Positions 3,430 through 42,800 of a stretch of DNA of 46,376 nucleotides are shown here, piece after piece. Positions within the stretch are counted from its first letter, which is position 1. Every line of letters begins with the position of its first letter. Location: contig CAMYLB010000133.1 in assembly GCA_947259145.1 (NCBI GenBank), forward strand, positions 1-46,376, in the 5' to 3' direction. The notes under the pieces were generated by a model. It did not search any database. It was not told the origin of the DNA and saw only the letters and a program-made list of their open reading frames with translations. The DNA comes from an uncultured Woeseiaceae bacterium (GTDB lineage: Bacteria > Pseudomonadota > Gammaproteobacteria > Steroidobacterales > Woeseiaceae). Made by a program: the position numbers and the translations under genes.

Positions 3430-3507
3430 CAGGCCGCCCCGGCAGGAGCGCGCCTCCCCATTCGGGGACAATGCCGGCGCGCGAAGACGTTGTCGGCCGC
3501 TGCGCAC

Positions 3508-22149: not shown

Positions 22150-22151
22150 GA

Positions 22152-22313
22152 ATGGAAAACCTGGCAATGGGAAATTATGGCGTGTATGTCTGGAGTTGTT
22201 TCGGACTGACATTGGCCGTCGTTGTCTTCTCGGACTGGCGCGCACGGTTGCGCCACAAACGCGTGTATCGCGACATAGAAGTGCGCATCAGAGCGCTGGA
22301 GGAACGCCAATGA
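22152..22313 (+). CDS. ccmD: Heme exporter protein CcmD (53 aa, below ORF-track cutoff)
   Basis: MENLAMGNYGVYVWSCFGLTLAVVVFSDWRARL..., a single TM small protein between ccmC and ccmE. Its stop overlaps the ccmE ATG. Confidence 0.75.
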   Translation: MENLAMGNYGVYVWSCFGLTLAVVVFSDWRARLRHKRVYRDIEVRIRALEERQ

Positions 22314-24741: not shown

Positions 24742-25274
24742 TGTCGCGATATATTTTGCCGCTGATTGCGGTTGTTGCACTGGTCCTGTTTCTGGTCATC
24801 GGTTTGCAGCGTGGCGACCCGAGGGCGCTGCCGTCACCTTATATTGGGAAACCGGCGCCGCAGTTTGAATTGCCGACCCTGGCTGATCCTGCGGTAATGG
24901 TGGCGTCGAAAGATCTCGAGGGAGATTTTGCGTTGGTCAACGTCTGGGCAACGTGGTGCGTCGGCTGCAGGTCCGAGCATCCCTTCCTTCTGCAGCTTGC
25001 GAGAGACAACAGCATTCCTATTTACGGCATCAACTGGCGCGATACGCGCCCCGAAGCACTGCGCTGGATTGCACAGCTGGGTGACCCGTATATCGCGTCG
25101 GGCTTCGATGAGACGGGGCGTGTCGGCATCGACTGGGGCGTATACGGCGCACCGGAGACGTTCCTTCTCAACGCTGATGGCATTGTGGTTCACAAACACC
25201 TGGGTCCTCTCGGCAGAGAGGCCTGGGATCGTGACTTCGTGCCATTGATCAACGCCGGGAGGGCCGCTCAATGA
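24741..25274 (+). CDS. ccmG: Thiol:disulfide interchange protein CcmG/DsbE
   Basis: MSRYILPLIAVV... anchor, the thioredoxin motif WATWCVGC, and GVYGAPETFL. The start overlaps the ccmF stop. Confidence 0.92.
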   Translation: MSRYILPLIAVVALVLFLVIGLQRGDPRALPSPYIGKPAPQFELPTLADPAVMVASKDLEGDFALVNVWATWCVGCRSEHPFLLQLARDNSIPIYGINWRDTRPEALRWIAQLGDPYIASGFDETGRVGIDWGVYGAPETFLLNADGIVVHKHLGPLGREAWDRDFVPLINAGRAAQ

Positions 25275-25711
25275 GACGTGTTCTGATCTTGGCTGTCGCA
25301 GTATTTTCAATGGGACCCGTCGCCGCGATCGATACGGGACAAGCATTTGACGACCCGGTACTCCAGGCGCGTTACGAAAAGCTCATTTCGGAGGTGCGAT
25401 GCCTGAAGTGTCAGAACCAGAGCATCAAGGACTCGAACGTTTTCCTGGCATCCGATCTGCGGCGAGAAATCCGCCGACTAATCGAGGAAGGCAAAAGCGA
25501 CGCCGAGGTTGTGGATTTCCTGGTCACCCGCTACGGCGAATTCGCCCTGTACCGGCCGCGCACAACAGGCAAGACGCTGATTCTCTGGATCGCACCGTTC
25601 CTGCTGGTACTTCTCGGTGGCTTTGCGCTGTTCCGTGTCGTCCGGCACCGCATGTCGATGCCGATGGATGACGACACAGCCATAACAGCCAAAGAAGGGT
25701 CGTCCGAGTGA
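25271..25711 (+). CDS. ccmH: Cytochrome c-type biogenesis protein CcmH
   Basis: Signal peptide, then the VRCLKCQNQSI (LRCxxC) motif and a C-terminal TM segment. Confidence 0.9.
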   Translation: MRRVLILAVAVFSMGPVAAIDTGQAFDDPVLQARYEKLISEVRCLKCQNQSIKDSNVFLASDLRREIRRLIEEGKSDAEVVDFLVTRYGEFALYRPRTTGKTLILWIAPFLLVLLGGFALFRVVRHRMSMPMDDDTAITAKEGSSE

Positions 25712-26769
25712 CTTTCTGGATAATTGCGGGCCTCTTGTGCCTTATTGCCATCGGTTTCGGTGCCTGGCCCCTGTATCGTGAATCACGCCGTCTTACGCCA
25801 GTGCTGGCGATTGTTATCGTGGCCACGGTGGCAGTGTCCGTCGGTCTTTACAGCCGTATCGGCAGCCCGGATATACCGTCAGCCGGGGCACAGTCCGACA
25901 CGATTCCCGATATGGCGTCGGCGATAGCCTCGCTGCAGCAGCGGCTTCTGGACAATCCCGAAGACGTAAACGGTTGGAACATGCTGGCACGTTCCTATAT
26001 GACCATGCAGCGTTTTGGCGATGCAGTTACAGCTTACGAGCGGGTCATGGAACTGGAGGATGGCCAAAACGCGCAGACGATGGTCGATCTCGCACTGGCA
26101 ATCCTGTCTCGCGACGGTACCGCGATCGAGGGCCGAACCTCATCATTGATCGAAAGCGCCCTGGCGCTGGAGCCGAATAATCCGGCAGCGTTGTTTTATT
26201 CGGGCATTGCGTCCGCGAATCGCGGCGATACGGAGATGGCGGCTAACCGTTGGGAGATGCTCCTGGGGCTGAACCCGCCTGCGGAGATCCGTTCGATTCT
26301 GGAGCAGCGCGTCGCGGAATGGCGCGGTGTGCCGATCGAGTCCATTGAACCGCCGGTCGTCGCTGCAGGCCCAAGCGCGCCAGCCGCGCCAGCCGCTCCG
26401 GGCGAAGCGCCAACAGCTGATCCCGATGCTGTGGTAACGGCACGCATCGCTTTATCGAACAGCGCCTTGTCGGCGCTCACGGCTGATGCGAACGTGTTCG
26501 TTATCGCACGTGACCCGGCACAACCGTCGCCGCCCATCGCGGTGAGTCGTGTGCGCTTGTCCGAATTGCCCACTGTCGTCTCGCTCGGGGATGCCCAATC
26601 GATGGTCGCTGGACGTGCACTGTCTGGTTATGAAGAATTCGAATTGCTGGCCCGCGTTTCCCTGAGCGGCTCTCCAGCCGCAACGCCAGGCGACTGGTTC
26701 GGTACCTTGATCGTGCGACCGGCGGACAGCCCCGCGGTTTTCCTGTCGATCGACCAGAGAGTGCCATAG
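25708..26769 (+). CDS. ccmI: Cytochrome c-type biogenesis protein CcmI/CycH (TPR)
   Basis: N-terminal TM pair and a TPR-like region (NPEDVNGWNMLARSYMTMQRFGDAV). Last gene of the ccm operon; overlaps the ccmH stop. Confidence 0.8.
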   Translation: MTFWIIAGLLCLIAIGFGAWPLYRESRRLTPVLAIVIVATVAVSVGLYSRIGSPDIPSAGAQSDTIPDMASAIASLQQRLLDNPEDVNGWNMLARSYMTMQRFGDAVTAYERVMELEDGQNAQTMVDLALAILSRDGTAIEGRTSSLIESALALEPNNPAALFYSGIASANRGDTEMAANRWEMLLGLNPPAEIRSILEQRVAEWRGVPIESIEPPVVAAGPSAPAAPAAPGEAPTADPDAVVTARIALSNSALSALTADANVFVIARDPAQPSPPIAVSRVRLSELPTVVSLGDAQSMVAGRALSGYEEFELLARVSLSGSPAATPGDWFGTLIVRPADSPAVFLSIDQRVP

Positions 26770-27646
26770 TGGCTTTACCGAAGTCGCTCGAAGGCAGGCT
26801 TCGAATCCCCCTGATTGGCGCGCCGATGTTCATCGTCTCGGGACCCGAACTGGTTATCGCGCAGTGCCAGGCTGGCATCGTGGGATCTTTTCCGGCACTT
26901 AACGCGCGGCCGCAGTCGGCGCTCAGTGAGTGGCTGAAACAGATCGAGGACGAACTCGGCGAATACCAGGAAGCGCATCCGGACGAGCCGGTCGCGCCCT
27001 ATGCGGTCAATCAGATTGCGCATGCCAGCAATCCACGTCTTTTTAAAGACGTAGAGACCTGCGTCAAGCACGAAGTGCCCATAATCATCACCAGCCTCAG
27101 GCCCCCTGAAGAAATTGTTACGGCGGTTCACTCCTATGGCGGGCTGGTATTTCACGATGTCATCAGCCTGCGACACTTGCCTTCATCAAGGAAATCCGGC
27201 GCGAGTTCGACGGCGCCCTGATTCTTTCGGGTTGCATTACGAGTGGCATGGATGTGGTTGCCGCGATAGCGTTGGGAGCCGACCTTGCTTACAGCGGGAC
27301 ACGCTTTATCGCCACGCAGGAAGCCCGGGCAGTGCCAAGTTACAAGGAAATGGTGGTAGATAGCAAAGCCGACGGCATCGTGTATACGTCGCTATTCACG
27401 GGTGTTCACGGCAGTTATCTCAAAGGCAGTATCGCCAACGCCGGAATGGATCCCGATAACCTGCCGGAAGGTAGCAAGAGTGACATGGATTTCGGCAACG
27501 AAGAGATTAGTGCAAAAGCCTGGAAAGACATCTGGGGTGCAGGCCAGGGCGTGGGTAACATTGACGAGATCATGCCGGCGCGGGACCTGGTATTACGCAT
27601 GGAGCGCGAGTATCGAGAAACCCTGGCCCACCTTAACGCGGCCTAG
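26769..27646 (+). pseudogene. Nitronate monooxygenase (2-nitropropane dioxygenase family), internal segment missing and frame broken near 27175
   Basis: ORF 26769-27221 (IGAPMFIVSGPELV..., HSYGGLVFHDVISLRH). A third frame continues with TLAFIKEIRREFDGALILSGCITSG and ORF 27248-27646 (ALGADLAYSGTRFIAT). The FMN-binding GVDG...AGGH block is absent. The total of 878 nt is not a multiple of 3. Confidence 0.8.
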
Positions 27647-27648
27647 TC

Positions 27649-28025
27649 ATGCATATCGTTTTTTATTCGTACCTGTTCGTGGCTCTGGGTGGCGCGCTTG
27701 GCGCAATGGCGCGATTAGCACTGAATGTTTTCCTAACCTGATCGGTTGCTTCGTGATGGGGATTCTTGCGCAACTAATCGCCAATACGTCGTGGTTTAAC
27801 GATGCCGGCATCATTCCTGATCAATACCGACTTCTATTTGCAGTGGGCTTCTGCGGAAGTTTCACGACGCTGTCATCGTTAGTGCTGGAACTCAACACAA
27901 TGATCCAGAAGAACGAGCTGTTTTATTCTTTCACGTATCTCGTTAGCACACTGGTCGGTGGTTTCGCTTGCTTCTATTTCGGCGTCGTCCTGATGAAGGC
28001 CGTTTTGCAGCTGCAAAATAGTTAG
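27649..28025 (+). pseudogene. crcB: Fluoride channel CrcB/Fluc, frame broken near 27725-27735
   Basis: MHIVFYSYLFVALGGALGAMARLALNVFLT* stops at 27739-27741. Another frame continues with FPNLIGCFVMG...FCGSFTTLSS... to 28025. The usual FPxGT loop segment appears shortened. The total of 377 nt is not a multiple of 3. Confidence 0.75.
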
Positions 28026-29416: not shown

Positions 29417-30712
29417 ATGGACCTTATCGCGATCGCCGTGCCGTTTTTTATGCTTGCGCTAGTCATCGAGCTGATCATCGATTGGAGAAAAGGCAGCGGG
29501 CTTTACCGCAGTAACGACGCTATCAATAGCCTGAGTGCCGGAATACTCAGCACCACAATTGGCTACTTCACCAAGTTCTTGCCGCTGATCGCCTGGGGAT
29601 TCGTGCTGCGCAATTTCGCACTCATCGATATGCAGCCGGAGTGGTTCGATCTCTCACCGAGCGGATTGCTGCTCTGGGTAACCGCGGCGCTCGCCTGGCT
29701 CTGGGTAACCGCGGCGCTCGCCTGGGATTTTTGCTACTACTGGTTCCATCGCTTCAGTCATGAGATATCAGTGCTCTGGGCTGCGCATGCGGTGCACCAT
29801 CAAAGCGAGGACTACAATCTTTCGACCGCGCTGCGGCAGACGAGTACCGGGTTCCTGTTCGGCTGGATCTTCTACACGCCGCTATTTCTGATTGGATTCC
29901 CGCTGGAAGTTCTCATCACGGTCAATGCCATTAACCTGATCTACCAGTTCTGGGTGCACACGCAAATGGTCCGGCGGCTGGGCGTTCTCGACCGGATCCT
30001 GGTGACGCCTTCGAATCATCGCGCACACCATGCTCAGAATGAGCGCTATATCGACAAGAATTACGGCGGCATGCTGATCCTCTGGGATCGCTTTTTCGGG
30101 ACCTTTGAAGATGAGGCTGAAGAAGAACCAGTTGTTTTCGGGGTACGCAAACCGTTGGCGAACCTGAATCCGTTTTGGGCCAACCTGCAGGTCTACGACT
30201 ACCTGCTGTTCGATGCCCGCAAGGCGTCCCGGTGGCGCGACAAGGTCGCGGTCTGGTTCCGCCGCACGGGCTGGCGGCCCGCGGACGTCGAGGAGCAGTA
30301 CCCCAGGCAAGCAACCGACATGTCCCGTTTTCAGAAGTTTGATCCACAAACAGCGCCGCAGCAGCGGTATTACGTCATCGCCCAGTTCACTATTGGCATC
30401 GCCGGCGCACTGATGATTGCAGAGTTGTATGTTCAGAAAGGCATGCAGGCCGTGCTGATCCCCTGCGTTCTGCTATGGCTCCAGCTCTTCACCCTGGGTT
30501 TGCTGAACGAGGGTCGTTCCTCGGCGCGTCGCCTTGAGTGGCTGCGTTTGCTGATCGCGGTCCCTGTACTGTTCTGGCTGTTGCAGGCCACGGGCGATGG
30601 ACTGCAGCTGCAAAACGTGGGATGGATCATTGTGGCCGTTTATACAATGGCATCCGCGGCCTGGTTGGCGCTGATCCCAAGGCCTGCTAGAGATCCGGTA
30701 AGTCAATTATAA
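29417..30712 (+). CDS. Fatty acid hydroxylase superfamily (sterol desaturase / alkylglycerol monooxygenase-like) membrane protein with extra C-terminal TM domain
   Basis: His boxes HRFSHE, HAVHHQSE and HRAHHAQNERYIDKNYGG. Contains a 9-residue tandem duplication, LWVTAALAW x2. Confidence 0.8.
   Translation: MDLIAIAVPFFMLALVIELIIDWRKGSGLYRSNDAINSLSAGILSTTIGYFTKFLPLIAWGFVLRNFALIDMQPEWFDLSPSGLLLWVTAALAWLWVTAALAWDFCYYWFHRFSHEISVLWAAHAVHHQSEDYNLSTALRQTSTGFLFGWIFYTPLFLIGFPLEVLITVNAINLIYQFWVHTQMVRRLGVLDRILVTPSNHRAHHAQNERYIDKNYGGMLILWDRFFGTFEDEAEEEPVVFGVRKPLANLNPFWANLQVYDYLLFDARKASRWRDKVAVWFRRTGWRPADVEEQYPRQATDMSRFQKFDPQTAPQQRYYVIAQFTIGIAGALMIAELYVQKGMQAVLIPCVLLWLQLFTLGLLNEGRSSARRLEWLRLLIAVPVLFWLLQATGDGLQLQNVGWIIVAVYTMASAAWLALIPRPARDPVSQL
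29672..29725 (+). repeat. Perfect 27-bp tandem duplication inside the hydroxylase gene
   Basis: CTCTGGGTAACCGCGGCGCTCGCCTGG occurs twice head-to-tail (29672-29698 and 29699-29725), in frame. Confidence 0.95.
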
Positions 30713-31163: not shown

Positions 31164-31779
31164 GATCCTGCTGCGACCGTCTGCCATAGCGCTGATCCTT
31201 GCGAACCTGGTGCCGTTGGCGGGTGTGCTGCTGTTCGATTGGCGGGTATTCGATATCTTGATGCTCTATTGGGCAGAGAATGTCGTTATTGGTGCCATCA
31301 ATGTACTGCGCATGAGTTTGTGCAGAGCCGCTATCAAGTGGTTTCTGATGCCGTTCTTCGTCGTGCATTACGGCATGTTTTGCTTCGGGCATTTGGCCGC
31401 AGTGACCGCCCTGTTCAGTGACTCCATGGGCACCGCAACGGCGTGGCAGTACTTTTTTGGAATGCCGTTTGCTGACGCCTGGAAATCGCCTCTCTGGATA
31501 GGTATCGCTGCGATTGCGGCGAGCCACTTATTTTCATTCTTCGCAAACTTCATCGCAGACGGAGAGTATCGCCGGACGAACGTCAACGACCTCATGCAAA
31601 GACCTTATGGACGAATCGTCGTATTACACGTGGCGATCATCCTCGGGGCTGCCCTGATCCAGTGGCTGGGCAGCCCCGTCTTGATGCTGCTCGTGCTGAT
31701 CGCCGCGAAGATCGTCTTGGATCTGCGGCTGCACCTGGCTGAGCGTGAAAAGTTTGCGGACGAAGCTGTGACGCGCTGA
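31156..31779 (+). CDS. Polytopic membrane protein (DUF6498-like)
   Basis: MTKILLRPSAIALILANLVPLAGVLLFDW...LYWAENVVIG... with about six hydrophobic segments. It overlaps the RidA stop by 8 nt. The family name is from memory only. Confidence 0.6.
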   Translation: MTKILLRPSAIALILANLVPLAGVLLFDWRVFDILMLYWAENVVIGAINVLRMSLCRAAIKWFLMPFFVVHYGMFCFGHLAAVTALFSDSMGTATAWQYFFGMPFADAWKSPLWIGIAAIAASHLFSFFANFIADGEYRRTNVNDLMQRPYGRIVVLHVAIILGAALIQWLGSPVLMLLVLIAAKIVLDLRLHLAEREKFADEAVTR

Positions 31780-31782
31780 CTG

Positions 31783-32271
31783 TTACTCCGCGCCGGTGCC
31801 GGTCTCATCCCTGGGTCGCCGGCGATCCTGCTTGCCATGATGCTTGCCTTCGCGCCGGTTCTCGCGGGCTTCGGCACGCTCTTCCTCCGACATCGATTCC
31901 CATTGCGCGCGCCGCTGGGCTTTTTTCTCCGCGTGTGCTGCACGCTTGATTGCCCGTTCTTCCTCAGACATCGATTCGCATTGTTCCCGCCGCTGGGCAT
32001 GTCTTTCCTTGCGTTTCTTGCCGGCGTCTTCAGGCCGGTTTGCGGCCATGCGCTCGCGTAAGGCCATGCGATCCTCGTCCGACAGTGCTTCTCGATCACT
32101 GCGCCATTTTTCGCGCATTGCGGCGCGTTCGTCGGGTGACATGCTCTCCATGTAGGTGCGGCGGTCTTCCGGACTGAGGTCTGCCATATCGGATGCCGAC
32201 TGTGTATAGCCCGGTACAGGCAGGAATAGCGCCAGCCCGGAAGCCAGCAGGAGCAAGCGAAGTTCTTGCAT
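31783..32271 (-). CDS. Secreted charged repeat protein (S-P/E-E-E/D-R repeats; DUF3106-like?)
   Basis: Signal peptide MQELRLLLLASGLALFLPVPGYTQS, then repeated LSPEDR / MSPDERAAMREKW / LSDEDRMALRERM / ESMSEEERA units. The DNA repeats are visible at 31870-31990. Confidence 0.6.
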   Translation of the reverse strand: MQELRLLLLASGLALFLPVPGYTQSASDMADLSPEDRRTYMESMSPDERAAMREKWRSDREALSDEDRMALRERMAANRPEDAGKKRKERHAQRREQCESMSEEERAIKRAAHAEKKAQRRAQWESMSEEERAEARENRREGKHHGKQDRRRPRDETGTGAE

Positions 32272-32348
32272 CTGGTATTCTCCTCAGTTGAGACGATTCC
32301 GCCTTGCAGCGGCTCATTGTTTGACGCATGGATGTGTACTGGGTTGAC

Positions 32349-32883
32349 ATGAATATTCCGAGAACATTCAAATTTGGTTACTCGCTTTTGATCGCAGGCC
32401 TGGTTCTCGCGGCGTGCGCATCGCGACCTGAACTCATGGCCAGAAGTGCTGTTGTACCGCCCGGCGCAGACTTGTCCGGCCTCTGGCAGCTTCGCGAGGA
32501 ACCCGGCTCGAAACCCATTCCAGGAGCGAACCCCGAACCTGGATTTCGGATACCGCCGACAAATACAAGCCGGAACACAGGCGCACGGCGGTCGAAACGC
32601 TCGTCGGGTACAGCGGCAACGATGTTTCTCGAAACAGGTGCATCACTGAAAATCTCGCAAACTCCCGACGGTTTGTTCATCAGTTTCGACCGGGCCATCG
32701 TCGAGGAGTACCGGTTTGGGGAAAACCGTATCGTCTCCGTGGGCCCGATCGAGGCGCAGCGGGTATCGGGATGGAAGGAGATGGTTTTTGTCGTCGAGAC
32801 GCTCGATGACCAGGGAGAAATATATTGGTATCCCGCGGTGATGACGAACGGTCTTCGTCGCGGCAGCGCTTCGACCGCATCTA
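32349..32883 (+). CDS. Lipoprotein of unknown function, probable frameshift near 32812-32825
   Basis: Lipobox LVLAAC. As written, the ORF runs 70 nt into the convergent gene. A shift after ...ETLDDQG gives ...NILVSRGDDERSSSRQRFDRI* ending at 32883, abutting the neighbour. The total of 535 nt is not a multiple of 3. Confidence 0.5.
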
Positions 32884-33621
32884 GTGTCCTGGTGTGTAGC
32901 TGCGCAACGTCGCCCGCACGCGCAGTTTGCCCTTACGATGCTGTTCGATAACAACCGGCAGGTAGCCTAGTTCCTCAGCGCACCAAAGCGTCGTTACCCT
33001 GGAGGAGGTCTCCGTCTGATGCTGGATGCCAATTGCCGTGAACTTACCAGCCGGAACGTCGATCTGTCGCGTGCCGATCGAGCGCACATTCAGGGTTTTG
33101 AGCTTATCGGCTTCGAACAACTCGTACTGTGTTTTGAGCTGATCGTTAAGCAGGTCATGCATAAGTGCATATTGAATAGACACCCGATCCTGCCTGATTC
33201 GATCCAGGTCCGCGTGAAACTCTTCATCATTGACCGTGCCGCTTGCCTTAAACGTATTCCAGTCAAACTGAATGTCGGCGCGCGGGTCGCCTTTGGCGAG
33301 CGTGTCGTTGGTCTGGTAGGAAATCGGATAAACGCCATCATCGCCGGCGGCGAACTCGGAAACTTCGACGATTTCGCCGTGAGCAACAATTCTTGACATG
33401 CCCGTTGGCTCAACGAAGTGCCTGGCGACGTAGCCGGAATCGGTGGCTTTAAGCGTCGTACCGAGTCGGCCACCGACAACACTTATCTTGATTCTGTACT
33501 CGGCCGTGTGCGGCGTCAGCGTTCCGCTCGCCTGCGCAGCGCCCGCAAACAAGCTGGCCGCCAACAGGAGCGTTGTCAGCCAATGCAGACTTCGGGTAGT
33601 TCGGCGGTAGTGCCCGTTCAT
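32881..33621 (-). CDS. Secreted DUF3108-like protein
   Basis: Signal peptide (LLLAASLFAGAAQASG) and a beta-rich sequence ending in ...LPVVIEQHRKGKLRVRATLRSY, typical by memory of DUF3108. It overlaps the upstream gene by 4 nt. Confidence 0.6.
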   Translation of the reverse strand: MNGHYRRTTRSLHWLTTLLLAASLFAGAAQASGTLTPHTAEYRIKISVVGGRLGTTLKATDSGYVARHFVEPTGMSRIVAHGEIVEVSEFAAGDDGVYPISYQTNDTLAKGDPRADIQFDWNTFKASGTVNDEEFHADLDRIRQDRVSIQYALMHDLLNDQLKTQYELFEADKLKTLNVRSIGTRQIDVPAGKFTAIGIQHQTETSSRVTTLWCAEELGYLPVVIEQHRKGKLRVRATLRSYTPGH

Positions 33622-34301
33622 GCACGCACCTCTTTAAGGACCTGCTCTGATTCTCGCATAAGTGACATGACTGCTTCCTGAACGGCCAGACGGTGCGACT
33701 CCAGCTGGTCAAGCGGCGCATCGGCCGGTATCGGGTAGGGCTGCCCAATGGCCAGTACAAGGCGTGAAAAGGGCTTGGGCACCATGAAATCGTCCCAGCG
33801 ATTCAAGTACCAGGCGTGCTCCGCTGCGCAAGCGATCGGAATAATGGGCACCCCCGCAATGCGAGCCATGAGGACGGCGCCGGCCTTGAACTCGTATTTG
33901 GGACCACGAGGACCATCGGCAGTCGTAACGATGGAATACCCGTTCTTCATCATGCGCTGCATGTCACGCAGTGCCAGAGCGCCACTTTCATTGGCCGAAC
34001 CGCGAATAACTTCCGCGCCCCATGCACGGGCAATACGTTCCGGCACTTCGCCGTCGACCGACCCCGAAACCAGGAAGCAGGCCTTGAATCCCCGCTGTAC
34101 CCACGAGCGAATCAGCATCGAGCCGACGACCTGGTGCTGGTGCCAGTAGCAGGGCGCACACACGGTGCCGTCCTTGATGAAGGGCTCAATGCGCTCGGCA
34201 CTGATGACTGCCTCGACCCGGTAGGTCGATGTCAGCAGTCGTATCAACGCCTGTAGCACGGGCAAGCCCAGGAAGTAATAGATTCGACGCGCCGGTGTCA
34301 T
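33618..34301 (-). CDS. Lysophospholipid acyltransferase family protein (DUF374-type)
   Basis: From Met at 34301: LLTSTYRV..., CYWHQHQ, VSGSVDGE..., and ITTADGPRGPKYEFKAGAVLMA, the characteristic DUF374 core. 227 aa. Confidence 0.75.
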   Translation of the reverse strand: MTPARRIYYFLGLPVLQALIRLLTSTYRVEAVISAERIEPFIKDGTVCAPCYWHQHQVVGSMLIRSWVQRGFKACFLVSGSVDGEVPERIARAWGAEVIRGSANESGALALRDMQRMMKNGYSIVTTADGPRGPKYEFKAGAVLMARIAGVPIIPIACAAEHAWYLNRWDDFMVPKPFSRLVLAIGQPYPIPADAPLDQLESHRLAVQEAVMSLMRESEQVLKEVRA

Positions 34302-34477
34302 GCGACGTTGCGAAGCTTTGCTGCGACGTGACTCGACCGAGTCGGAGGTTTTGGGGCGCTGGTTGCTCAAAATGGGACCCGGCGGAAGAAGTGCATGAGT
34401 TTGCAGTATCGGTTCGACGCCGGTCAATGTAATATTGCGCCTGCATTTCCTGAGTCCCACCGAACCCCCATCTGCAG

Positions 34478-35785
34478 ATGACAGAAGCCCAGCTCGCATA
34501 CAGGCAGCCGCCCGGTCCTGACCAAGCCATTACGCTCGGCATTGACCAAGAGACGCTCGCGACGCTCGAGGCCCTGCAGCGCGAGTTCGGCGACATGGTC
34601 AGCATGATCAAGCCGAACGGACGCCTCGCGTACTTCGTCAACGATTCCCACGAGGTGCGCCGCATCCTGGTGCGCCGGCACAGCAAGTACCACAAGGGCC
34701 CCGGATTCGAACGCGTCAAGATGCTGCTCGGCAACGGCCTTATTGTCAGCGACGGAGATGTGTGGAGGCGCTCGCGCACAATGATCCAGCCAGCATTCAG
34801 CCGACAGAATGTTCATCGCCTCATAACCGTCATGGTCGAATGCTGCGACCGCCGTGCCGTCCATTGGGCCGACCTTGTTGCGCGCGGCGAGAACGTCAAT
34901 ATTACCGAAGAGACGTCAGATTTTGCCCTGGAGCTTATCCTGATCAGCATCTTCGGCAGCGATTACCAGGACCGTATTCTGACCCAGGGTGAAAATCCGT
35001 TCGCATTTCTCAGCCGGGACTCGACTCGAGACCTGGGTGTCGTTTTGAAGATTCGAAAGCTGCGCGAGCTGTTGATGAGTATTATCGACGAAAGACGCAG
35101 CGGCGGCGGCGGGGATCACTTCGACTTCCTCTCTATGTACCTTACTGCCGTTGACAAGAAGGGCCAGCCGTTCACAGACGCCGAGTTGCTTGACGAACTC
35201 ATGACATTGATTGTGGCCGGCTTTGAAACATCGGCCAACACGCTGAACTGGGTCTGGTACCTGATCGCGAAAAATCCCGACATCGAGGAAAGACTGGTTG
35301 CAGAAGCGCGGCACGCATTGCCCGGCGTTTCTGCCGTGAACGCCGACTCCGTGAACTCGATGCAGTACACTCAACAAACCTTAGAAGAAGCACTCAGATT
35401 GTATCCGCCGGTCTGGCTGTTTACGCGACGCGCGCACGACGAAGACGAACTCGATGACTACGATGTTCCACCGGGAACCGACATCTACCTGTCCCCGTTC
35501 ATCCTGCACCGGACCGAACGATACTGGCCTGACCCGAACACCTTCGACCCGGAGCGATTCGCCCCGACCGACAAACCGAGCAAGGACCGACCGTACTTTC
35601 CGTTCTCGCTGGGCCCCCGACGCTGTCTCGGCGAGTATTTTTCTTTTCTGGAAATGAAGGTGCATCTGGGCCTGTTGCTGCCACGTTTTCGCATGCGTCT
35701 GCTGGATGACAAAGAACCCGAACTCGAATTGGGTATCAATCTTCGTTCAGCGACTGATATCTACCTGCAGCCCGAGGAGCGGTAA
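34478..35785 (+). CDS. Cytochrome P450 (CYP4/CYP102-like heme loop; probable fatty-acyl substrate)
   Basis: I-helix AGFETS, ExxR in EEALRLYPP, PERF-like DPERF, heme loop FPFSLGPRRCLGEYF. Confidence 0.9.
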   Translation: MTEAQLAYRQPPGPDQAITLGIDQETLATLEALQREFGDMVSMIKPNGRLAYFVNDSHEVRRILVRRHSKYHKGPGFERVKMLLGNGLIVSDGDVWRRSRTMIQPAFSRQNVHRLITVMVECCDRRAVHWADLVARGENVNITEETSDFALELILISIFGSDYQDRILTQGENPFAFLSRDSTRDLGVVLKIRKLRELLMSIIDERRSGGGGDHFDFLSMYLTAVDKKGQPFTDAELLDELMTLIVAGFETSANTLNWVWYLIAKNPDIEERLVAEARHALPGVSAVNADSVNSMQYTQQTLEEALRLYPPVWLFTRRAHDEDELDDYDVPPGTDIYLSPFILHRTERYWPDPNTFDPERFAPTDKPSKDRPYFPFSLGPRRCLGEYFSFLEMKVHLGLLLPRFRMRLLDDKEPELELGINLRSATDIYLQPEER

Positions 35786-35792
35786 GCCACAC

Positions 35793-37760
35793 ATGGAGCT
35801 TTACAACACACTGACCGACCTGCTGCAGGACGCACGCGGCAAGGACGGCGAAATTCGATTTATCGACGGCGAGAATGATGAAAGTGTCATTCGCTTTCCC
35901 GACCTGTGGGATCGGGCGATCGCGCTGCTTGGCTCCTTGCAGGCCCGTGGTATGCGGCCGGGTGATGAGCTGATCATTTTCAGCAAGTCGAATGAGAGTT
36001 TCGTCGTGGCATTCTGGGCCGCCGTGCTCGGCGGTATCGTGCCGGTGCCGGTCGCAGTTGGTATCAGTGATGAGCATCGGCTCAAGTTGTTTCGCATCGT
36101 GTCACAGCTCCGAAAGGGAACGCTGTTTACAGAAATGGGGCTGCTGGAACGCTTGCTCGAATTTTCGAAGCAACGGGAGCTGGATGACATCACGCACTTG
36201 CTGGAAACCCGCACCGTGCTGATGAGCGACGTAGAACCGGAATCGCATGGCGAGGTATTCACAGCAACGCCCGACGACATCGCATTCATACAGTATTCCT
36301 CGGGTTCGACGAGTGATCCGAAAGGCATCGTACTTACGCATAAAAACCTGTGCATCAACATCCGCGCAATTGTCGAGGCAACTGGCTGGAACAAGGACGA
36401 CCAGAGCCTGAGCTGGATGCCGCTGACCCACGATATGGGGCTGATCGGTTATCACTTGAGCGTGCTCGGCGTTGGCATGAATCATGCCGTCATGGATACC
36501 AACGTATTCGTCAGGCGGCCGCTGTTATGGATGAGCAAAGCCGATGAACTTCGCGCGACGCAGCTGTGCTCGCCTAATTTCGGCTACAAGCACTTCCTCA
36601 AACTGTTCGCGCGCAAGGGCCTCCCGGACATGGATCTCTCATGCGTCAAGTTGATCCTGAACGGCGCAGAACCGATTTCATGGGAGCTCTGCGAGGAGTT
36701 CCTGGCGGCGCTTGCACCGCACGGTCTGAAGCGCACGGCGATGTATCCCGTGTACGGGCTGGCCGAGGCAACCGTTGGCGTGTCATTGCCGAAACCCGGC
36801 AGCGAATATTCGCGCATCACGGTAGACAGGCACAGTTTGCGGGTCGGAGACGGGTACCGGGCCGTGGACCCCGGCGATTCGGATGCTGTGAGCTTTGTCA
36901 AAGTCGGCACTGCCATTCGCGATGTTGAAATTCGTATTGCCGACGACCAGGACAAGGCTTTGCCCGAAGGCATGATCGGAAATATTCAGCTGCTGGGTGG
37001 CAGTGTGACCGAAAAAGTGTACGGCGACGAAGCGGCGACAGCCGAGCTGTTCACGACAGACGGCTGGCTGCGCACCGGGGATTGCGGCGTGTTCGTTGAC
37101 CAACAACTGGTGATCACGGGCCGTCAGAAAGACATCATCATCGTCAATGGTCAGAACTACTATCCGCACGACATCGAAGAGATCATCGCGGGGCTCGAGG
37201 GCATGGATCTCAACAAGGTCGTGGTTGCAGGCGCGACGCCCAAGGGCGGACAGACCGAGGAACTGATCGCATTCATTCTCTACCGGCAGGCAGTGGAAGA
37301 TTTTGTGCCAGTGATCCACCAGGTACGAGCGCTGGTCGGCGAGCAAACGGGCCTCGAAGTCGATACGGTAATCCCGGTTTCACGTATTCCAAAAACAACC
37401 AGCGGCAAAGTGCAGCGCGGCAAACTTCTGGAATCCTACCTGGACGGCGAATTCGATGAGGTTCTCAGCCAGCTGGCGCCCGATGACGCGGGTGATGCCG
37501 CAATCGACGACGACGAACTTGTCGCCGAACTAATTACGATTTGCCGCGAGTTTTCGAAAGATCGTAAGATCGGGCCGGAAGACAACCTGTTTGAAGTCGG
37601 CGTGAGTTCGCTGACCTTGACCGAGATCGTACTGGCGGTTGACGAGAAATACCCGGGCAAACTGGATATCAGCGATTTGTTCGATTATCCGACGTTGCGA
37701 GAGATCGCGGCGTTCCTAAGAAGGAATACCACACGAGAAGACACTGGATACCTCCGATGA
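35793..37760 (+). CDS. Fatty acyl-AMP ligase-type adenylation domain fused to an acyl carrier (PP-binding) domain
   Basis: IQYSSGSTSDPKGIVLTHKNL, YGLAEAT, GWLRTGDCG and TTSGKVQRGKL, then the carrier motif FEVGVSSLTLTEIV. ATG is 7 nt after the P450 stop. The C-terminal end may be affected by the junction at about 37720-37745. Confidence 0.85.
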   Translation: MELYNTLTDLLQDARGKDGEIRFIDGENDESVIRFPDLWDRAIALLGSLQARGMRPGDELIIFSKSNESFVVAFWAAVLGGIVPVPVAVGISDEHRLKLFRIVSQLRKGTLFTEMGLLERLLEFSKQRELDDITHLLETRTVLMSDVEPESHGEVFTATPDDIAFIQYSSGSTSDPKGIVLTHKNLCINIRAIVEATGWNKDDQSLSWMPLTHDMGLIGYHLSVLGVGMNHAVMDTNVFVRRPLLWMSKADELRATQLCSPNFGYKHFLKLFARKGLPDMDLSCVKLILNGAEPISWELCEEFLAALAPHGLKRTAMYPVYGLAEATVGVSLPKPGSEYSRITVDRHSLRVGDGYRAVDPGDSDAVSFVKVGTAIRDVEIRIADDQDKALPEGMIGNIQLLGGSVTEKVYGDEAATAELFTTDGWLRTGDCGVFVDQQLVITGRQKDIIIVNGQNYYPHDIEEIIAGLEGMDLNKVVVAGATPKGGQTEELIAFILYRQAVEDFVPVIHQVRALVGEQTGLEVDTVIPVSRIPKTTSGKVQRGKLLESYLDGEFDEVLSQLAPDDAGDAAIDDDELVAELITICREFSKDRKIGPEDNLFEVGVSSLTLTEIVLAVDEKYPGKLDISDLFDYPTLREIAAFLRRNTTREDTGYLR

Positions 37761-38634
37761 GTGGATTCGCGAAAGAACGGGCATCAAGCGCAGGCACATC
37801 GCCGGCGACAACGAGACCACGTCGACGATGGGCGTGCAGGCGGCGAAACGCGCCATGGAAATGGCGGGCGTTGGCGCTGAAGATATCGATCTCATCGTCC
37901 TCGGCACGGCGACCCCCGACAAGATCTTCCCTTCCACCGCCTGCATCATTCAAAGGCAGCTGGGCGTCAAAGGCTGTGGGGCTTTTGACGTGCATGCCGT
38001 CTGCAGTGGTTTTGTGTACGGCCTGGATCTTGCCAACCGGTACATCCAGACGGGTGGTGCCCGAACGGCACTGGTCATCGGGTCCGAGACCCTGTCCCGG
38101 ATCACGAACTGGGAAGACCGTGGGACCGCTGTCCTGTTCGGCGATGGGGCAGGTGCCGTCGTCCTGCAGGCCAGCGAGGAGCCCGGCATTTTGTCCACGC
38201 ACATTCATGCCGACGGTGAGTACGAAGAACTGTTGCAGGTCAAGCAAGGTGTTTCAGTAGGTTTCGACGTTACGAAGGCCGGCGGCGCCTATATCACGAT
38301 GGAAGGTAACGCCGTTTTCCGGCGCGCCGTCGCAACGTTCGACAATATCGCCCGTGAAACCGTCGCGGACCTCGACGGTCACCTGGACGACATCGACTGG
38401 TTCATACCTCATCAGGCCAACATGCGCATCATCAAAGCGGCGGCAAAAAAACTGCAAATGCCGATGGAGCGCGTGATCGCGACCGTAGACGAGCATGCCA
38501 ATACTTCCGGGGCGTCCATCCCGCTCGCGATGGACCTCGCCATTCGTGACGGTCGTATCAAGCGGGGTCAGACACTGCTGTTGGCCGCCTTCGGGGCCGG
38601 CTTCACCTGGGGGTCAGCGATGCTCCGCTATTGA
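37747..38634 (+). CDS. fabH: 3-oxoacyl-ACP synthase III (KAS III, FabH-like), 5-prime end missing
   Basis: The frame reads DTSDEWIRERTGIKRRHIA..., AVCSGF (Cys), PHQAN (His), HANTSGASIP (Asn). It opens only at 37720 after an in-frame TAA. No plausible start exists, and the first ~25 residues of FabH are absent. The ORF-track ATG at 37828 lies inside the conserved core. Confidence 0.8.
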   Translation, partial: DTSDEWIRERTGIKRRHIAGDNETTSTMGVQAAKRAMEMAGVGAEDIDLIVLGTATPDKIFPSTACIIQRQLGVKGCGAFDVHAVCSGFVYGLDLANRYIQTGGARTALVIGSETLSRITNWEDRGTAVLFGDGAGAVVLQASEEPGILSTHIHADGEYEELLQVKQGVSVGFDVTKAGGAYITMEGNAVFRRAVATFDNIARETVADLDGHLDDIDWFIPHQANMRIIKAAAKKLQMPMERVIATVDEHANTSGASIPLAMDLAIRDGRIKRGQTLLLAAFGAGFTWGSAMLRY

Positions 38635-38803
38635 GTCCCGAGCGCCCAGACCCCGACCAATTCGACATAAGCTGGAAAACAGGCCGTTTTGCGCCACTTT
38701 AGTGTGACCCGATTCACACTTTGAGGGCCATGCTGTCTCTATACTGCGACAGTAACTACTGTCTCCAAACGGAGACAACCACCGACCAAATTCTACGACG
38801 ACA

Positions 38804-38956
38804 TGCCGCTTTCGGAATCGAATGTGTCGCTCAAACTGGCCGATATTCAGAAACAGTGTTCGCAGCTTCTGCAGGACACCGAAGATTCAATCGAATTAAC
38901 ACTCGAGGATGCCGTAATTCCCGGCGATGCGTTCAATCCCTACGATCGCGCCTGAA
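38804..38956 (+). CDS. Possible small acidic protein (50 aa)
   Basis: ORF MPLSESNVSLKLADIQKQCSQLLQDTEDSIELTLEDAVIPGDAFNPYDRA in an otherwise ORF-poor 450-bp gap. There is no clear RBS. Confidence 0.2.
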
Positions 38957-39086
38957 GCCCTCGTTCGCTCGTCCTAAGCAAATACCGACAACAAGCGTTG
39001 CCGCGGCTCGATCGACCCCGATTACCCGCGACGTTTGCTAGTATCCCCCTGGTGACATCAAGACCATCGGACCAGGGGGTTTAAGT

Positions 39087-39545
39087 ATGGCTATCGAACT
39101 GACGATCAACGGTCAGGCAGTTTCACTCGACGTAGACCCGGATATGCCTTTGCTGTGGGCGATCCGCGATGTCGCGGGTCTGACGGGCACCAAATTTGGC
39201 TGTGGCAAAGCGCTGTGTGGCGCCTGCAATGTGCACTTGGACGGCCAGGTAATGCGGTCCTGTGTGATCCCCGTGTCAGCGGCCGTGGGCCGCAAGTTAA
39301 CGACCATCGAGGGCCTGACTGAAGACGGTAATCATCCGGTCCAGGTGGCATGGCGGGAGCTCAACGTCGCGCAATGCGGTTACTGCCAGCCCGGCCAGAT
39401 CATGAGTGCCGTGGCGCTCCTGGAACGCAATCCGAATCCGAGTGATGACGATATTGACGCGGCAATGAGCGGCAATATTTGCCGCTGCGGCACCTACACG
39501 CGCATCCGCCAGGCAATCCACAAAGTTGCGGAGGACCGGTCATGA
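39087..39545 (+). CDS. (2Fe-2S)-binding small subunit of a molybdopterin oxidoreductase (IorA / aldehyde oxidase small subunit type)
   Basis: [12 protein letters not shown] and [11 protein letters not shown]...CRCGTY, the two [2Fe-2S] motifs. 152 aa. Confidence 0.9.
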
Positions 39546-41797
39546 GCGAACTTCGACATATCAGCCGCCGCGAATTCCTCAAACGTACGGGACAGGCCGG
39601 TGGCGGACTGGTCCTGGCACTGACATTCACGGCAGGCTGCGGACGGGTGGCCCCCGGTCCCGCCGGCCAAAACACCGCCTCGGTTGCGCCCAACGTCTAC
39701 GTTAACGTTCGTAACGACGGCATCGTCGAAATATTCTGCCATCGCTCCGAAATGGGGCAGGGCATTCGTACCTGCCTGCCGCAGATTATCGCCGACGAAA
39801 TGGATGCTGACTGGGATCGAATCGAGCTGATACAGGCGCTCGGCGATGCGAAATACGGCGATCAGAATACCGACGGCTCGACGAGTATCCGCAACCAGTT
39901 TGACCTGTTGCGCAATGCCGGGGCCACCGCGCGCGAGATGCTGATTGCGGCCGCGGCAGCCGAGTGGGGCGTACCGGCAGGGGAGTGCAGCGCCCGCGAG
40001 CATGCTGTGCATCATGAGGGCAGCGGCAAGTCAGCGGGCTTCGGCGACCTCGTGGACGCCGCCGCGAAGCTCGAAGCGCCGACTGAAGCACCCTTCAAGT
40101 CCCGCGAAGACTACCGCTATATCGGTAAGTCGATGGATACCATCGATGGATTCGCTTTTACAACGGGCCAGGCCATCTATGGCATCGACACGGTCCTTCC
40201 AAAAATGCTGTATGCCTCGATCGAACGCTGCCCGGCATCTGGCGGCACCGTCGTGTCGTTCGACGACGCCAAGGCCAAAGCGGTCCCAGGTGTCGTCGAC
40301 GTAGTGAAGCTTCCCGATCCAACGTCGCCAGTGTTGTTTAACGTTCTGGGCGGTATTGCCGTACTCGCCACCAATACCTGGGCCGCACAAAAAGGCCGCG
40401 AGGCGCTGCAGATCGAATGGGACCGGGGCGCGAACGGCACGCATGAATCGGCCGCCTACCGCAAAGCGCTGGTGAAGTCTGCCACGTCGAGCGGCAACCC
40501 GATTTTGACTCGCGGTGACGTGGCTGCGGCTTTCAAAGCGGCCAATAGCGTACATGAAGCCGTCTATTACGCACCCTACCTGTCCCAGGCTCCGATGGAG
40601 CCGCCGGCGGCCATAGCGCGGATCACGGACGATGGCGGGTGTGAAGCCTGGGCCTGCACGCAAAACCCGCAGGCCGCACAGGACACGGTCGCGGCGACGC
40701 TGGGCATCGACAAGGAAATGGTCAAGGTCCATGTGACGTTGCTGGGCGGTGGCTTCGGGCGCAAGTCCAAGCCCGACTTTATTGCCGAAGCGGCCTGGCT
40801 TGCACGGGAAACCGGGAGGCCGGTCAAGGTCACCTGGACGCGCGAAGACGATATCCGCCACGGGTATTTTCACTCGGTCAGTGCGCAGTACCTCAAGGCG
40901 GGTCTCGATGCCGACGGCAATGCCACCAGCTTTTTGCACCGCAGCTGTTTCCCGTCGATCATGTCGACGTTCGACCCGAGCGCGACCGGACCCGGTGGCT
41001 TCGAACTCGACCTCGGTCTACTCGATAACCCCTATGACATTGCGAACATGCAACTCGAAACGGCAGATGCCAAAGCGCACCTGCGCATCGGTTGGCTTCG
41101 CTCAGTCTGCAATGTCTTTCACGCCTTCGCGCTGAGCGGTTTCGTCGATGAGCTTGCCCACGTTGCCGGCCAGGATCCCAGGGACCATTTGCTCAAGCTG
41201 CTCGGCAAGCCGCGCCAGGTCGACCCGGCCGACGACGGGGCCAAATATACTAACTACGGTCATCCGCTCGAGAACCACCCGATTGACACAGGTCGAATTG
41301 CCGCGGTCGTTGAAAAGGTCGCCGACATGGCTAACTGGGGAAGGGCGCTGCCTGACGGGCATGGCCTCGGCATTGCCGTGCATCGTTCTTTTCTGAGTAT
41401 CGTTGGCACGGTGGCCGAAGTGAGTGTCGACAAGAACGGCAAACTGGTCGTGCACGATGTCTGGACTGCCGTTGATGCCGGGACAGTGATTAATCCGGAT
41501 CGCGTAACGTCGCAGATGGAGGGCGCCGCAATTTTCGGCATGAGTATCGCCCTGCACGGCGAGATTACGGCTAAAGACGGGGCTGTCGTGCAAGGCAACT
41601 ACGATACCTATCCGGTTGTGCGAATGAGCGAAACGCCGGATGCCATCCATGTTCACATCATGGAATCGACGGCACCTCCGGGCGGCGTGGGCGAGCCGGG
41701 CGTTCCGCCGGTTGCGCCCGCAATCGTGAACGCCTATTTCGCGGCGACCGGCAAGCGAATTCGGGAATTACCGTTACGGAATGCCGGGCTGACCTGA
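39542..41797 (+). CDS. Molybdopterin-binding large subunit (IorB / xanthine dehydrogenase family), Tat-exported
   Basis: ATGA overlap with the small subunit. Twin-arginine signal [10 protein letters not shown] and lipobox-like TAGC. Large MoCo-binding domains ([17 protein letters not shown]). Confidence 0.88.
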
Positions 41798-41801
41798 TCC
41801 C

Positions 41802-42800
41802 GTGAATCGCTGCGCGCCTTTTCTGGTGTTGATCTGCAGTGCCAGTCAGGCGTCGCCGTTATTTGATGAACACGACGTCCTTGAGATTACTCTCGAGGGC
41901 CCCGTGTCCACGTTGTTGGAAGACAGCGAAGCGCGCGGCGAGCAACCCTTTCGCCTTACCCTGGGCGACCAGGTCTTTAACGTGGGCGCAAACCTGCGTG
42001 GCAACAGCAGGGTAGAGCTCTGTCACTTTCCACCAATCCGCCTGAATTTTTCGAAAAGCGACGCACAGGAAACCGTTTTTGCAGGCCAAAGGAAACTCAA
42101 ACTCGTCACACATTGCAAGGGCGGTGCAAATTACGAAAAGAACTTGCTGGAGGAGTATGCAGCGTACCGCATTCTGAACGTGCTCACGGACATGAGCTTT
42201 CGGACACGTTTGCTGCATATTCGATATGTGGACAGTGAGCACCCCGATCGCGATGCCGTTGTGCGCTATGGCTTCCTGATTGAGCCTGAGAAAGCCCTTG
42301 CAGGGCGCAACGGCGGGACCCTGCTCGATCTGCGCCACGTTACGAAACCGCGGCTCGACGAGCCGCATGCGGCGATCGTCTATGTTTTCCAATACCTCGT
42401 TGGCAACACGGACTGGTCACTTGTCAGGGCGTTCGATTCTGAAACGTGCTGCCACAATGGCGAGCTCGTGGGTATCGATGATCGGCAATACTATGTGCCC
42501 TACGACTTCGATATGGCGGGACTCGTCAATGCACGCTATGCGGCGCCAAATCCAGACCTGCGTTTAAGACGTGTGACCCAGAGAAGGTATCGAGGTTACT
42601 GTTCCACGACCGAGGCCGTTCGGGACGCGCTCCAGTTGGTGATTAGCCACCACGATGACATCCTGAAAATCATCGCAGAACTGCCGGGCTTTTCTGAAGA
42701 CGACATCGCATCTTCATCCCGGTTTCTGGAGGGGTTCTTTAAGGGCGCCGCAAACGAAGAGAAGCTACTGCGTGAGTTTGAGCGTCGATGCCTGAAGTAA
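41802..42800 (+). CDS. Secreted hypothetical protein (332 aa)
   Basis: Signal peptide MNRCAPFLVLICSASQA. GTG start 4 nt after the iorB-like stop. Conserved-looking block YLVGNTDWS...YYVPYDFDMAGLVNARYA, but I cannot name a family. Confidence 0.6.
   Translation: MNRCAPFLVLICSASQASPLFDEHDVLEITLEGPVSTLLEDSEARGEQPFRLTLGDQVFNVGANLRGNSRVELCHFPPIRLNFSKSDAQETVFAGQRKLKLVTHCKGGANYEKNLLEEYAAYRILNVLTDMSFRTRLLHIRYVDSEHPDRDAVVRYGFLIEPEKALAGRNGGTLLDLRHVTKPRLDEPHAAIVYVFQYLVGNTDWSLVRAFDSETCCHNGELVGIDDRQYYVPYDFDMAGLVNARYAAPNPDLRLRRVTQRRYRGYCSTTEAVRDALQLVISHHDDILKIIAELPGFSEDDIASSSRFLEGFFKGAANEEKLLREFERRCLK

Follow-up and report, generated by a model that had tools for sequence, protein, structure and literature searches.

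The DNA analysed here is a 46,376-nt contig of an uncultured Woeseiaceae bacterium (GenBank assembly GCA_947259145.1, contig CAMYLB010000133.1, forward strand; hereafter the window), which carries two divergently transcribed groups of genes. The plus strand encodes a cytochrome P450, a fatty acyl-AMP ligase (FAAL)-type adenylation domain fused to a carrier domain (FAAL::ACP, for acyl carrier protein), and a β-ketoacyl-ACP synthase III (KAS III, the product of fabH); the minus strand encodes a membrane acyltransferase with a DUF374 domain and a secreted DUF3108 protein (Table 1). An earlier interpretation made from the letters of the DNA and their translations (the sequence-only reading) had taken the five genes for a dedicated lipid-tailoring pathway. 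The open reading frame list, the translations and the Pfam matches showed that all five genes, and the motifs quoted for them, are present. The 7-nt gap noted between the P450 and FAAL::ACP genes was also found, as were the 4-nt overlap of the DUF374 and DUF3108 genes (33618-33621) and the position of the KAS III gene downstream of FAAL::ACP, outside a plsX-fabHDG-acpP context. Domain calls were made with Pfam and NCBIfam profiles, and folds were assigned with AlphaFold2 (AF2) models and Foldseek.

Genes inherited together with the ligase–carrier fusion

The window was compared with 82 related loci, 80 of which came from one FAAL::ACP scan of species-representative genomes. The FAAL::ACP proteins of these 80 range from 95% down to 48% identity, and the loci originate from Woeseiaceae, Steroidobacteraceae, Lysobacterales, Chromatiales, Thiohalomonadales, Thioalkalispiraceae and metagenome-assembled genomes of Burkholderiales. 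The names of homologues place the window in the gammaproteobacterial family Woeseiaceae. Related sequences stem mostly from sediment and other environmental metagenomes, and the Woeseiaceae members of the data set largely from marine-sediment metagenomes. Up to 10 kb of flank was considered on each side (∼20 kb per genome); the proteins of the window were mapped by tblastn, and only loci with sufficient flank were scored.

The DUF374 gene is adjacent and divergent to FAAL::ACP in 60 of 61 loci, irrespective of the identity bin. The P450 gene lies directly upstream of FAAL::ACP in 66 of 74 loci, its stop codon at most 15 nt from the FAAL start in 66/67, and is cleanly absent from seven loci, all of them from Woeseiaceae. 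DUF3108 adjoins DUF374 in nearly every locus with at least 52% FAAL identity (45/46) and in 2/12 below that value; in one locus (L066) it is found on the opposite side of FAAL::ACP, the neighbourhood being kept and the order changed. For KAS III, adjacency holds in 47/48 loci whose FAAL identity is at least 60%, in 3/9 between 52 and 60% (2/9 by script; L052, whose 25-nt overlap with FAAL exceeded the script threshold, was added by hand) and in 0/15 below 52%. Its adjacency is confined to Woeseiaceae, and even there an M20-like peptidase gene can take its place after FAAL::ACP (L025). The flanks of the distant group are unrelated and include GGDEF-EAL, nadC, Fur-family and peptidase genes. Thus, the conserved core consists of DUF374 and FAAL::ACP, usually together with the P450. 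The dedicated five-gene set stood as far as the co-inheritance of these three genes is concerned but not for KAS III, which accompanies them only in Woeseiaceae, nor for DUF3108, which does so mainly there and is an accessory member of the module.

A gene resembling phosphopantetheinyl transferases (PPTase) is inserted between DUF374 and the P450 in about eight distant, Steroidobacteraceae-like loci, four of which are listed in Table 1 and four more of which (L072, L077, L078 and L082) have it in the same place. Only the gene of L069 matches the Pfam family ACPS; the others are tied to it by weak tblastn similarity. No such gene was found in the window. The presence of a PPTase-like gene in the module suggests that the carrier domain is used.

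Table 1. Positions of the features discussed (window coordinates unless a locus is named).
Feature	Position	Strand	Remarks
Secreted DUF3108 protein, 246 aa	32881..33621	-	PF11306; signal peptide ending between AQA and S (read from the sequence)
DUF374/LpxJ-family membrane acyltransferase	33618..34370	-	PF04028; probable TTG start 34368-34370, 250 aa
Conserved non-coding block, 47 nt	34397..34443	.	boxA GAGTTTGCAGTATCG, 10 nt, boxB GGTCAATGTAATATTGCGCCTG
Cytochrome P450, 435 aa, first gene of the plus-strand operon	34478-35785	+	PF00067, 243 bits; loop FPFSLGPRRCLG
FAAL-type adenylation domain and carrier, 655 aa	35793-37760	+	PF00501 and PF00550; GVSSL
Junction of 67-bp deletion, ACCACA joined to CGAGAAGAC	37733/37734	+	Alignments with L001, L002, L003, L005, L007 and L061
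fabH (KAS III) remnant, codons 25-322	37738..38634	+	tblastn of L001 FabH covers residues 25-322 only
PPTase-like gene between DUF374 and P450	L068:8078-8764; L069:7961-8650; L071:8018-8746; L074:4798-5430	that of DUF374	
Aldehyde dehydrogenase gene	495-2047		Frame-split
Class II DAHP synthase gene	2186-3540		Frame-split
NMO-family gene	26769-27643		82-bp deletion near 27176 versus L001
crcB	27649-28022		40-bp deletion near 27734 versus L001
Duplication in a fatty-acid-hydroxylase-family gene	29672-29725		In-frame perfect 27-bp tandem duplication GCTCTGGGTAACCGCGGCGCTCGCCTG, not in L001
Hypothetical gene	32622-32945		55-bp deletion near 32816 versus L001

The DUF374 protein scored 71.7 bits against its Pfam family (gathering score 26.8). 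The sequence-only reading had named it a DUF374-type lysophospholipid acyltransferase; the family assignment was correct, but the protein is not a generic enzyme of that kind, since the family has been recognized as the LpxJ family of lipid A late acyltransferases (PMC6148475). The public annotation, "lysophospholipid acyltransferase family protein", names no more than the superfamily. DUF374 has been renamed LpxJ, and its representatives in Helicobacter, Campylobacter, Wolinella and Rickettsia attach the 3′ secondary acyl chain of lipid A; in the enzyme of R. typhi, loss of any one of W60, H61, D86, D132, W172 and D173 kills activity, and the HX4D motif is absent (PMC6148475). All six critical residues have a match in the module enzyme (by motif and spacing, not by alignment to RT0047), namely W53, H54, D83, D129, W169 and D170, and each is kept in at least 98% of the 64 module DUF374 orthologues. 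The spacing from D to D (46 residues) and from D to W (40 residues) is identical in the module DUF374 and LpxJ, and none of the 64 orthologues contains HX4D, the local context being YWHQHQVVGS.

Because a sequence search of the PDB returned no useful match for DUF374 and no match for DUF3108, the structures of both were predicted. The DUF374 model (AF2, mean pLDDT 82.4) resembled PlsC (5kym, TM score 0.53), PatA (∼0.5) and LpxM (5knk, 0.48), so that, as modelled, the protein has an LPLAT/GPAT acyltransferase fold. It thus shares with LpxJ the Pfam family, the six critical residues and their spacing, the lack of HX4D, an N-terminal membrane helix and the LPLAT fold; its loci are without nearby lipid A genes. 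Known LpxJ enzymes differ in that they draw on housekeeping acyl-ACP and have no linked FAAL::ACP or P450. The family is huge (7439 representative clusters), and among its best 150 representatives no fusion of DUF374 with FAAL, ACP/carrier or WaaA was found. A metagenomic protein of 380 amino acids (P0441) joins a DUF374 domain to an ApeI-like dehydratase domain; judged from this fusion, some DUF374 acyltransferases may serve aryl-polyene-like, carrier-dependent pathways or acceptors other than lipid A.

The second core protein, read from the sequence as a FAAL-type adenylation domain fused to a carrier with the motif GVSSL, has AMP-binding and PP-binding Pfam matches and contains this motif; 78 of the 82 loci have the carrier motif in the form G[VIAL]SS[LIM]. 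The protein has 646-647 residues in relatives as opposed to 655 in the window, where the last eight (REDTGYLR) are a by-product of the 67-bp deletion treated below; an exact look-up of the window protein gave no match because its C-terminus is altered. The best NCBIfam match of the adenylation domain is a fatty acyl-AMP ligase subfamily (339 bits, curated cutoff 600). Its relatives in the PDB are StsA, McyG, EcFAAL, LpFAAL and FadD32, the top match being the keto-acid adenylation (A) domain of StsA (E value 3e-82), with EcFAAL, LpFAAL and FadD32 at 1e-60 to 1e-64. The motif YGLAE is FAAL-like and not the Gly-Met of keto-acid A domains, which marks keto-acid selection in StsA (PMC7923214). In FAALs, a specific insertion between motifs A5 and A6 prevents the use of CoA. 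From YGLAE to GNIQLLG, this interval comprises 70 residues in FAAL::ACP. The same interval in E. coli FadD is presumably ∼43 residues long, ∼27 fewer than in FAAL::ACP. The phmmer match to EcFAAL over nearly equal lengths (query 6-549, chain 21-560) argues against a large net indel. The likeliest substrate of the adenylation domain is a fatty acid. Near the module, neither a thioesterase nor any other enzyme for off-loading is conserved, DUF374 being the sole conserved transferase.

All 67 P450 orthologues retain the cysteine loop F..G.R.C.G. The best PDB relatives of the P450 are 7wzl, CYP97 (LUT5), CYP170A1, CYP46A1, CYP4B1, CYP3A4 and BM3, a mixed set among whose nearest members are carotenoid hydroxylases (the CYP97 relatives), and every score against NCBIfam equivalogs is far under its cutoff. 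The enzyme had been described as CYP4/CYP102-like; it does belong to a broad CYP97/170/46/4/3/102 neighbourhood, but this does not fix its substrate. The DUF3108 protein scored 50.6 bits against PF11306 (cutoff 26). Its model (AF2, pLDDT 85.6) is a beta-rich half-barrel, closest to Brucella DUF1849 (6ntr, TM score 0.58), with the lipid-binding proteins RseB/MucB, LolA/LolB and LprG at 0.3-0.4.

The truncated fabH and the block in the spacer

In the closest relatives (L001 and L002), a 647-residue FAAL::ACP overlaps a KAS III of 322 residues by ATGA, and the FAAL::ACP of L001 is 98% identical to that of the window. In the window, a clean 67-bp deletion, of which five close relatives are free, removes this ATGA-overlapped start codon of fabH together with codons 1-24, the KAS III frame being open only from 37720 and offering its first ATG, GTG or TTG at 37828. 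The remaining 298 codons specify a protein 94.6% identical to that of L001, with no further lesion. The KAS III with an intact catalytic triad that had been read from the sequence is therefore correct as regards the equivalents of Cys112, His244 and Asn274, but the gene is truncated at its 5′ end. A programmed frameshift joining FAAL::ACP to KAS III was also considered; no evidence for it was found, and in relatives the two are separate genes.

The full-length KAS III of L001 scored 440 bits against TIGR00747 (cutoff 292) and 452 bits against PRK09352, is 55% identical to E. coli FabH (in a sequence whose length and catalytic positions check out), and keeps C112, H244, N274 and F87. In FabH structures, Phe87 restricts the primer pocket to short acyl groups. 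The Woeseiaceae orthologue resembles the E. coli enzyme in its Cys-His-Asn triad, in Phe87 and in being full length (322 residues in relatives), whereas the copy in the window has lost its start codon and codons 1-24. Neither the 82 loci nor the window yielded a second fabH, a fabD or an acpP, except for a partial FabD-like match in L080 (4261-4773, minus strand), which is 31% identical to E. coli FabD and lies ∼2 kb downstream of FAAL::ACP at the contig edge. Judged by similarity and synteny, KAS III is most likely the housekeeping fabH of the lineage, which in Woeseiaceae is syntenic, and probably co-transcribed, with the module, rather than a step of a pathway. The assignment of KAS III needs caution: in the window the gene is truncated, and it does not belong to the conserved unit.

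The 176 bp between the divergent operons (34302-34477) had been regarded as a shared control region. This did not hold: the 69 nt that precede the ATG at 34301 are part of a coding sequence, and the spacer is reduced to ∼107 nt (34371-34477). Variation in these 69 nt is threefold higher at codon position 3 than at positions 1 and 2, and the peptide that they specify, (L/M)SNQ..DSVESRRS, is conserved. The most likely start of DUF374 is accordingly TTG 34368-34370 rather than the alternative ATG (34301), which would give 227 residues. In L020, an ATG stands at the first codon of the extended DUF374.

Within the spacer, boxA and boxB form a block that occurs once per locus, in constant orientation and spacing and essentially invariant, in ∼50 Woeseiaceae loci. 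It is more conserved than the flanking genes, whose coding regions are only 60-75% identical, and loci without the P450 keep it, in this case upstream of FAAL::ACP. On the minus strand the block reads TTGACC-17 nt-CAAACT and on the plus strand TGtAATATT; it is a candidate overlapping divergent promoter/operator. A scan for σ70 consensus sites and terminators found nothing in the spacer, with fewer sites than in shuffled sequences, and Rfam detected no RNA family across 31500-39300, the block included. A σ54 reading of boxA was rejected on inspection by eye: the GC is not preceded by a GG at a distance of 10 nt, and conservation does not extend to the upstream part.

A proposed private carrier for an envelope acyltransferase

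The genes are most plausibly read as a three-gene acyl-transfer module with lineage-specific accessories, in which an LpxJ-like enzyme would load an oxidised acyl chain onto an envelope glycolipid; we assign this reading a probability of about 0.45. Starting from the domain identities, catalytic residues, folds and co-inheritance described above, we infer the following substrate, order of steps, acceptor lipid and role of DUF3108. The FAAL-type domain would adenylate a free carboxylic acid, a fatty acid being the likeliest, and load it onto its own carrier without a CoA intermediate, and the P450 would oxidise the chain, probably while it is bound to the carrier. The LpxJ-family DUF374 enzyme, anchored on the cytoplasmic side of the inner membrane by its N-terminal helix, would then accept the chain from this private carrier and esterify it to a hydroxyl group of an envelope glycolipid, the likeliest acceptor being lipid A, which would receive it as a secondary acyl chain. 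A possible role of the secreted, LolA/RseB-like DUF3108 protein in Woeseiaceae is to bind the product in the periplasm or to accompany it there. That DUF374 would be the enzyme that off-loads the chain follows from its being the only conserved transferase nearby and from the donor preference of its family: characterised LpxJ enzymes take acyl-ACP donors, according to a review that refers to the original work (PMC6286764). For a hand-off from carrier to DUF374 in general, the chances are about even or better. Lipid A as the acceptor is in itself rather doubtful in view of the P0441 fusion and the lack of lipid A genes nearby. The complete version, in which free (scavenged or recycled) fatty acids would be oxidised by the P450, borne by the FAAL carrier and transferred by LpxJ to lipid A independently of the AcpP pool of type II fatty acid synthesis (FAS II), is likewise more doubtful than probable by a wide measure. 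As a whole, the lipid-tailoring idea is partly supported: it holds for three of the five genes, in the form of a private-carrier-dependent acylation of an envelope lipid. The LpxJ identity provides it with a particular candidate target, and KAS III drops out as a step.

Several observations weigh against this interpretation. None of the loci examined has a lipid A gene (lpx, waaA or msbA) near the module. The fatty-acid substrate is not proven, the best solved relative being the keto-acid-activating StsA and the FAAL scores lying under their cutoffs. The loss of the P450 from seven Woeseiaceae loci shows that oxidation is dispensable for the core reaction, and no gene for a redox partner is adjacent to the P450. 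The likeness of DUF3108 to LolA-like proteins is weak (TM score 0.3-0.4). Finally, gene adjacency by itself is no proof that DUF374 accepts the FAAL carrier.

Three other explanations were considered. In the five-gene pathway originally envisaged, KAS III would use the acyl-carrier as primer or extender and DUF374 would pass the elongated product to a membrane lipid. The ATGA overlap of FAAL::ACP and fabH in the closest relatives (a spacing of -4 nt is the commonest, in 19 loci) and the adjacency of KAS III in 47 of 48 loci at 60% FAAL identity or more speak for it, as do precedents for dedicated ketosynthases acting on a private ACP, namely acpXL-fabF1XL/fabF2XL (PMC5613085) and the aryl polyene (APE) clusters (PMC8253772). 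However, KAS III adjoins FAAL::ACP in none of the 15 loci below 52% identity and is missing from the module in L025, L054, L057, L059 and L060; it scores as a canonical FabH well over the cutoff, with 55% identity to the E. coli enzyme and Phe87 kept; FabH is normally primed by acyl-CoA and not by acyl-ACP; and the window gene is without its start and first 24 codons. A KAS III step is, for these reasons, very unlikely. A quite improbable explanation, if less so, is that the neighbours have no common pathway: DUF374 would be a housekeeping LpxJ working on acyl-AcpP, P450-FAAL::ACP would act elsewhere, and a divergent promoter would be all they share. The size of the DUF374 family (7439 clusters), the lack of a FAAL or carrier fusion among its best 150 representatives and the independent loss of the P450 are what one would expect in this case. 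Yet DUF374 stays adjacent in 60 of 61 loci, across orders and across changes of flanking gene order in which all other neighbours differ, distant loci have a PPTase-like gene in the DUF374 operon, and a loaded carrier would have no other conserved off-loading partner.

The explanation closest to the private-carrier transfer to a glycolipid retains the hand-off and changes the acceptor, which would be a lysophospholipid, as in an Aas-like salvage of free fatty acids, or another envelope lipid or glycolipid that would subsequently be exported, in the way proposed for aryl polyene lipids. It agrees with a neighbourhood devoid of lipid A genes, with a DUF374 model that fits PlsC and PatA as well as LpxM, and with the P0441 fusion of DUF374 to an ApeI-like domain, which puts some family members in APE-like pathways; moreover, the APE system unites an adenylating ACP loader, an LPLAT acyltransferase and LolA/LolB-like proteins (PMC8253772), and the DUF3108 fold is LolA/RseB-like. 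It is nevertheless unlikely, though the least so of the three, since all DUF374 members characterised to date acylate lipid A (PMC6148475, PMC6286764), all six LpxJ-critical residues are retained, and the loci examined show no conserved RND/MMPL exporter or LolB-like partner of the module.

Two known systems come close to the proposed acyl-transfer module. In the AcpXL/LpxXL system for the lipid A of Rhizobiales, a private carrier delivers an (omega-1)-hydroxy very-long-chain fatty acid to an envelope-lipid acyltransferase (PMC5613085). A private carrier, a special acyl chain and a late acyltransferase in the same cluster are features that the module, as proposed, has in common with this system; it differs in that the AcpXL chain is built de novo by FabF/FabZ paralogues and transferred by an LpxL-family enzyme, whereas the module would combine a free acid, oxidation by a P450 and transfer by DUF374. 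Because stand-alone AcpXL, FabF/FabZ paralogues and an LpxL-family LpxXL are all lacking from the module, it is analogous to this system and not a member of it. In the APE cluster, ApeH charges a dedicated ACP with an acid independently of CoA, while attachment and localisation of the product fall to an LPLAT acyltransferase and LolA/LolB-like proteins (PMC8253772). CoA-free loading of an acid, an LPLAT acyltransferase and LolA-like secreted proteins recur in the module as proposed (compare ApeH, ApeE/F, ApeD and ApeL/N); unlike APE, it has no polyene set of ketosynthase, ketoreductase and dehydratase, no RND exporter and no LolB-like gene, and it does have a loader–carrier fusion and a P450. 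The module belongs to neither system.

A further parallel is Aas of E. coli (acyl-ACP synthetase/2-acyl-GPE acyltransferase), a single fused protein with an acyltransferase domain of the PlsC type (HX4D) that uses AcpP in trans. Like Aas, the module would use ATP to place a free fatty acid on a carrier and couple this to transfer to a membrane lipid, but in the module it is the ligase that is fused to the carrier, and the transferase is separate and of the LpxJ type. A literature search on LpxJ together with FAAL, or on FAAL, ACP, P450 and lipid A in combination, yielded no description of the module, in agreement with the earlier statement that no characterised pathway has exactly this gene set.

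Acylation of lipid A sets the stability of the outer membrane and the sensing of the molecule. To our knowledge, the late acyltransferases described so far all draw on acyl-ACP from FAS II or, in Rhizobiales, on a chain made de novo on a private ACP. If the private-carrier transfer to an envelope glycolipid is correct, Woeseiaceae would have a new way of remodelling the envelope, in which a free acid is activated, oxidised and handed to an LpxJ-type enzyme. In the complete version, Steroidobacterales and related Gammaproteobacteria would have a self-contained route to lipid A with an oxidised secondary acyl chain, by a mechanism not previously described. A FAAL::ACP-P450 pair would for the first time be given a functional context other than polyketide and lipopeptide pathways, and the module suggests a role for DUF3108.

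Further lesions and neighbouring genes

The fabH deletion is not the only lesion in the window. Indels of ∼40-100 bp or frameshifts interrupt at least six conserved genes (Table 1). L001, whose DNA is 94-98% identical, is intact at the broken genes where it overlaps. A search for microhomology at the deletion junctions found none. The segment that contains fabH (37734-38777) is itself a mosaic, being 85% identical in DNA to L001 and 90% to L005 between flanks 94-98% identical to L001, and both its borders coincide with indels; it reflects either recombination between strains or a chimeric assembly path. The pattern of lesions can be explained by a chimeric or error-prone metagenomic assembly no less well than by real gene decay, and given the other genes with such breaks, the deletion in fabH may be an artefact of assembly. 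If the fabH found here is the only copy in these genomes, its truncation in the window is very probably such an artefact.

Upstream, the segment 28022-31779 comprises genes for a PLP-dependent decarboxylase (minus strand), a 431-residue protein of the fatty-acid-hydroxylase superfamily with weak similarity to OlsE, RidA and a DUF6498 protein (all on the plus strand). This set is syntenic with the module in many Woeseiaceae loci, not in the distant ones, and may be another lipid-modifying neighbourhood. Downstream of fabH, and there in close relatives only, lie the two genes of a [2Fe-2S] and molybdopterin oxidoreductase of the aldehyde oxidase/xanthine dehydrogenase type and one for a conserved 332-residue protein without a Pfam match (39087-42800); the [2Fe-2S] protein is not an obvious partner of the P450. 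Other lipid genes of the window encode a CDP-alcohol phosphatidyltransferase (7961-8524) and a cardiolipin-synthase-like protein of 705 residues with two PLD-like domains (15651-17768), and a ccm cluster for cytochrome c maturation is located at ∼21400-26769.

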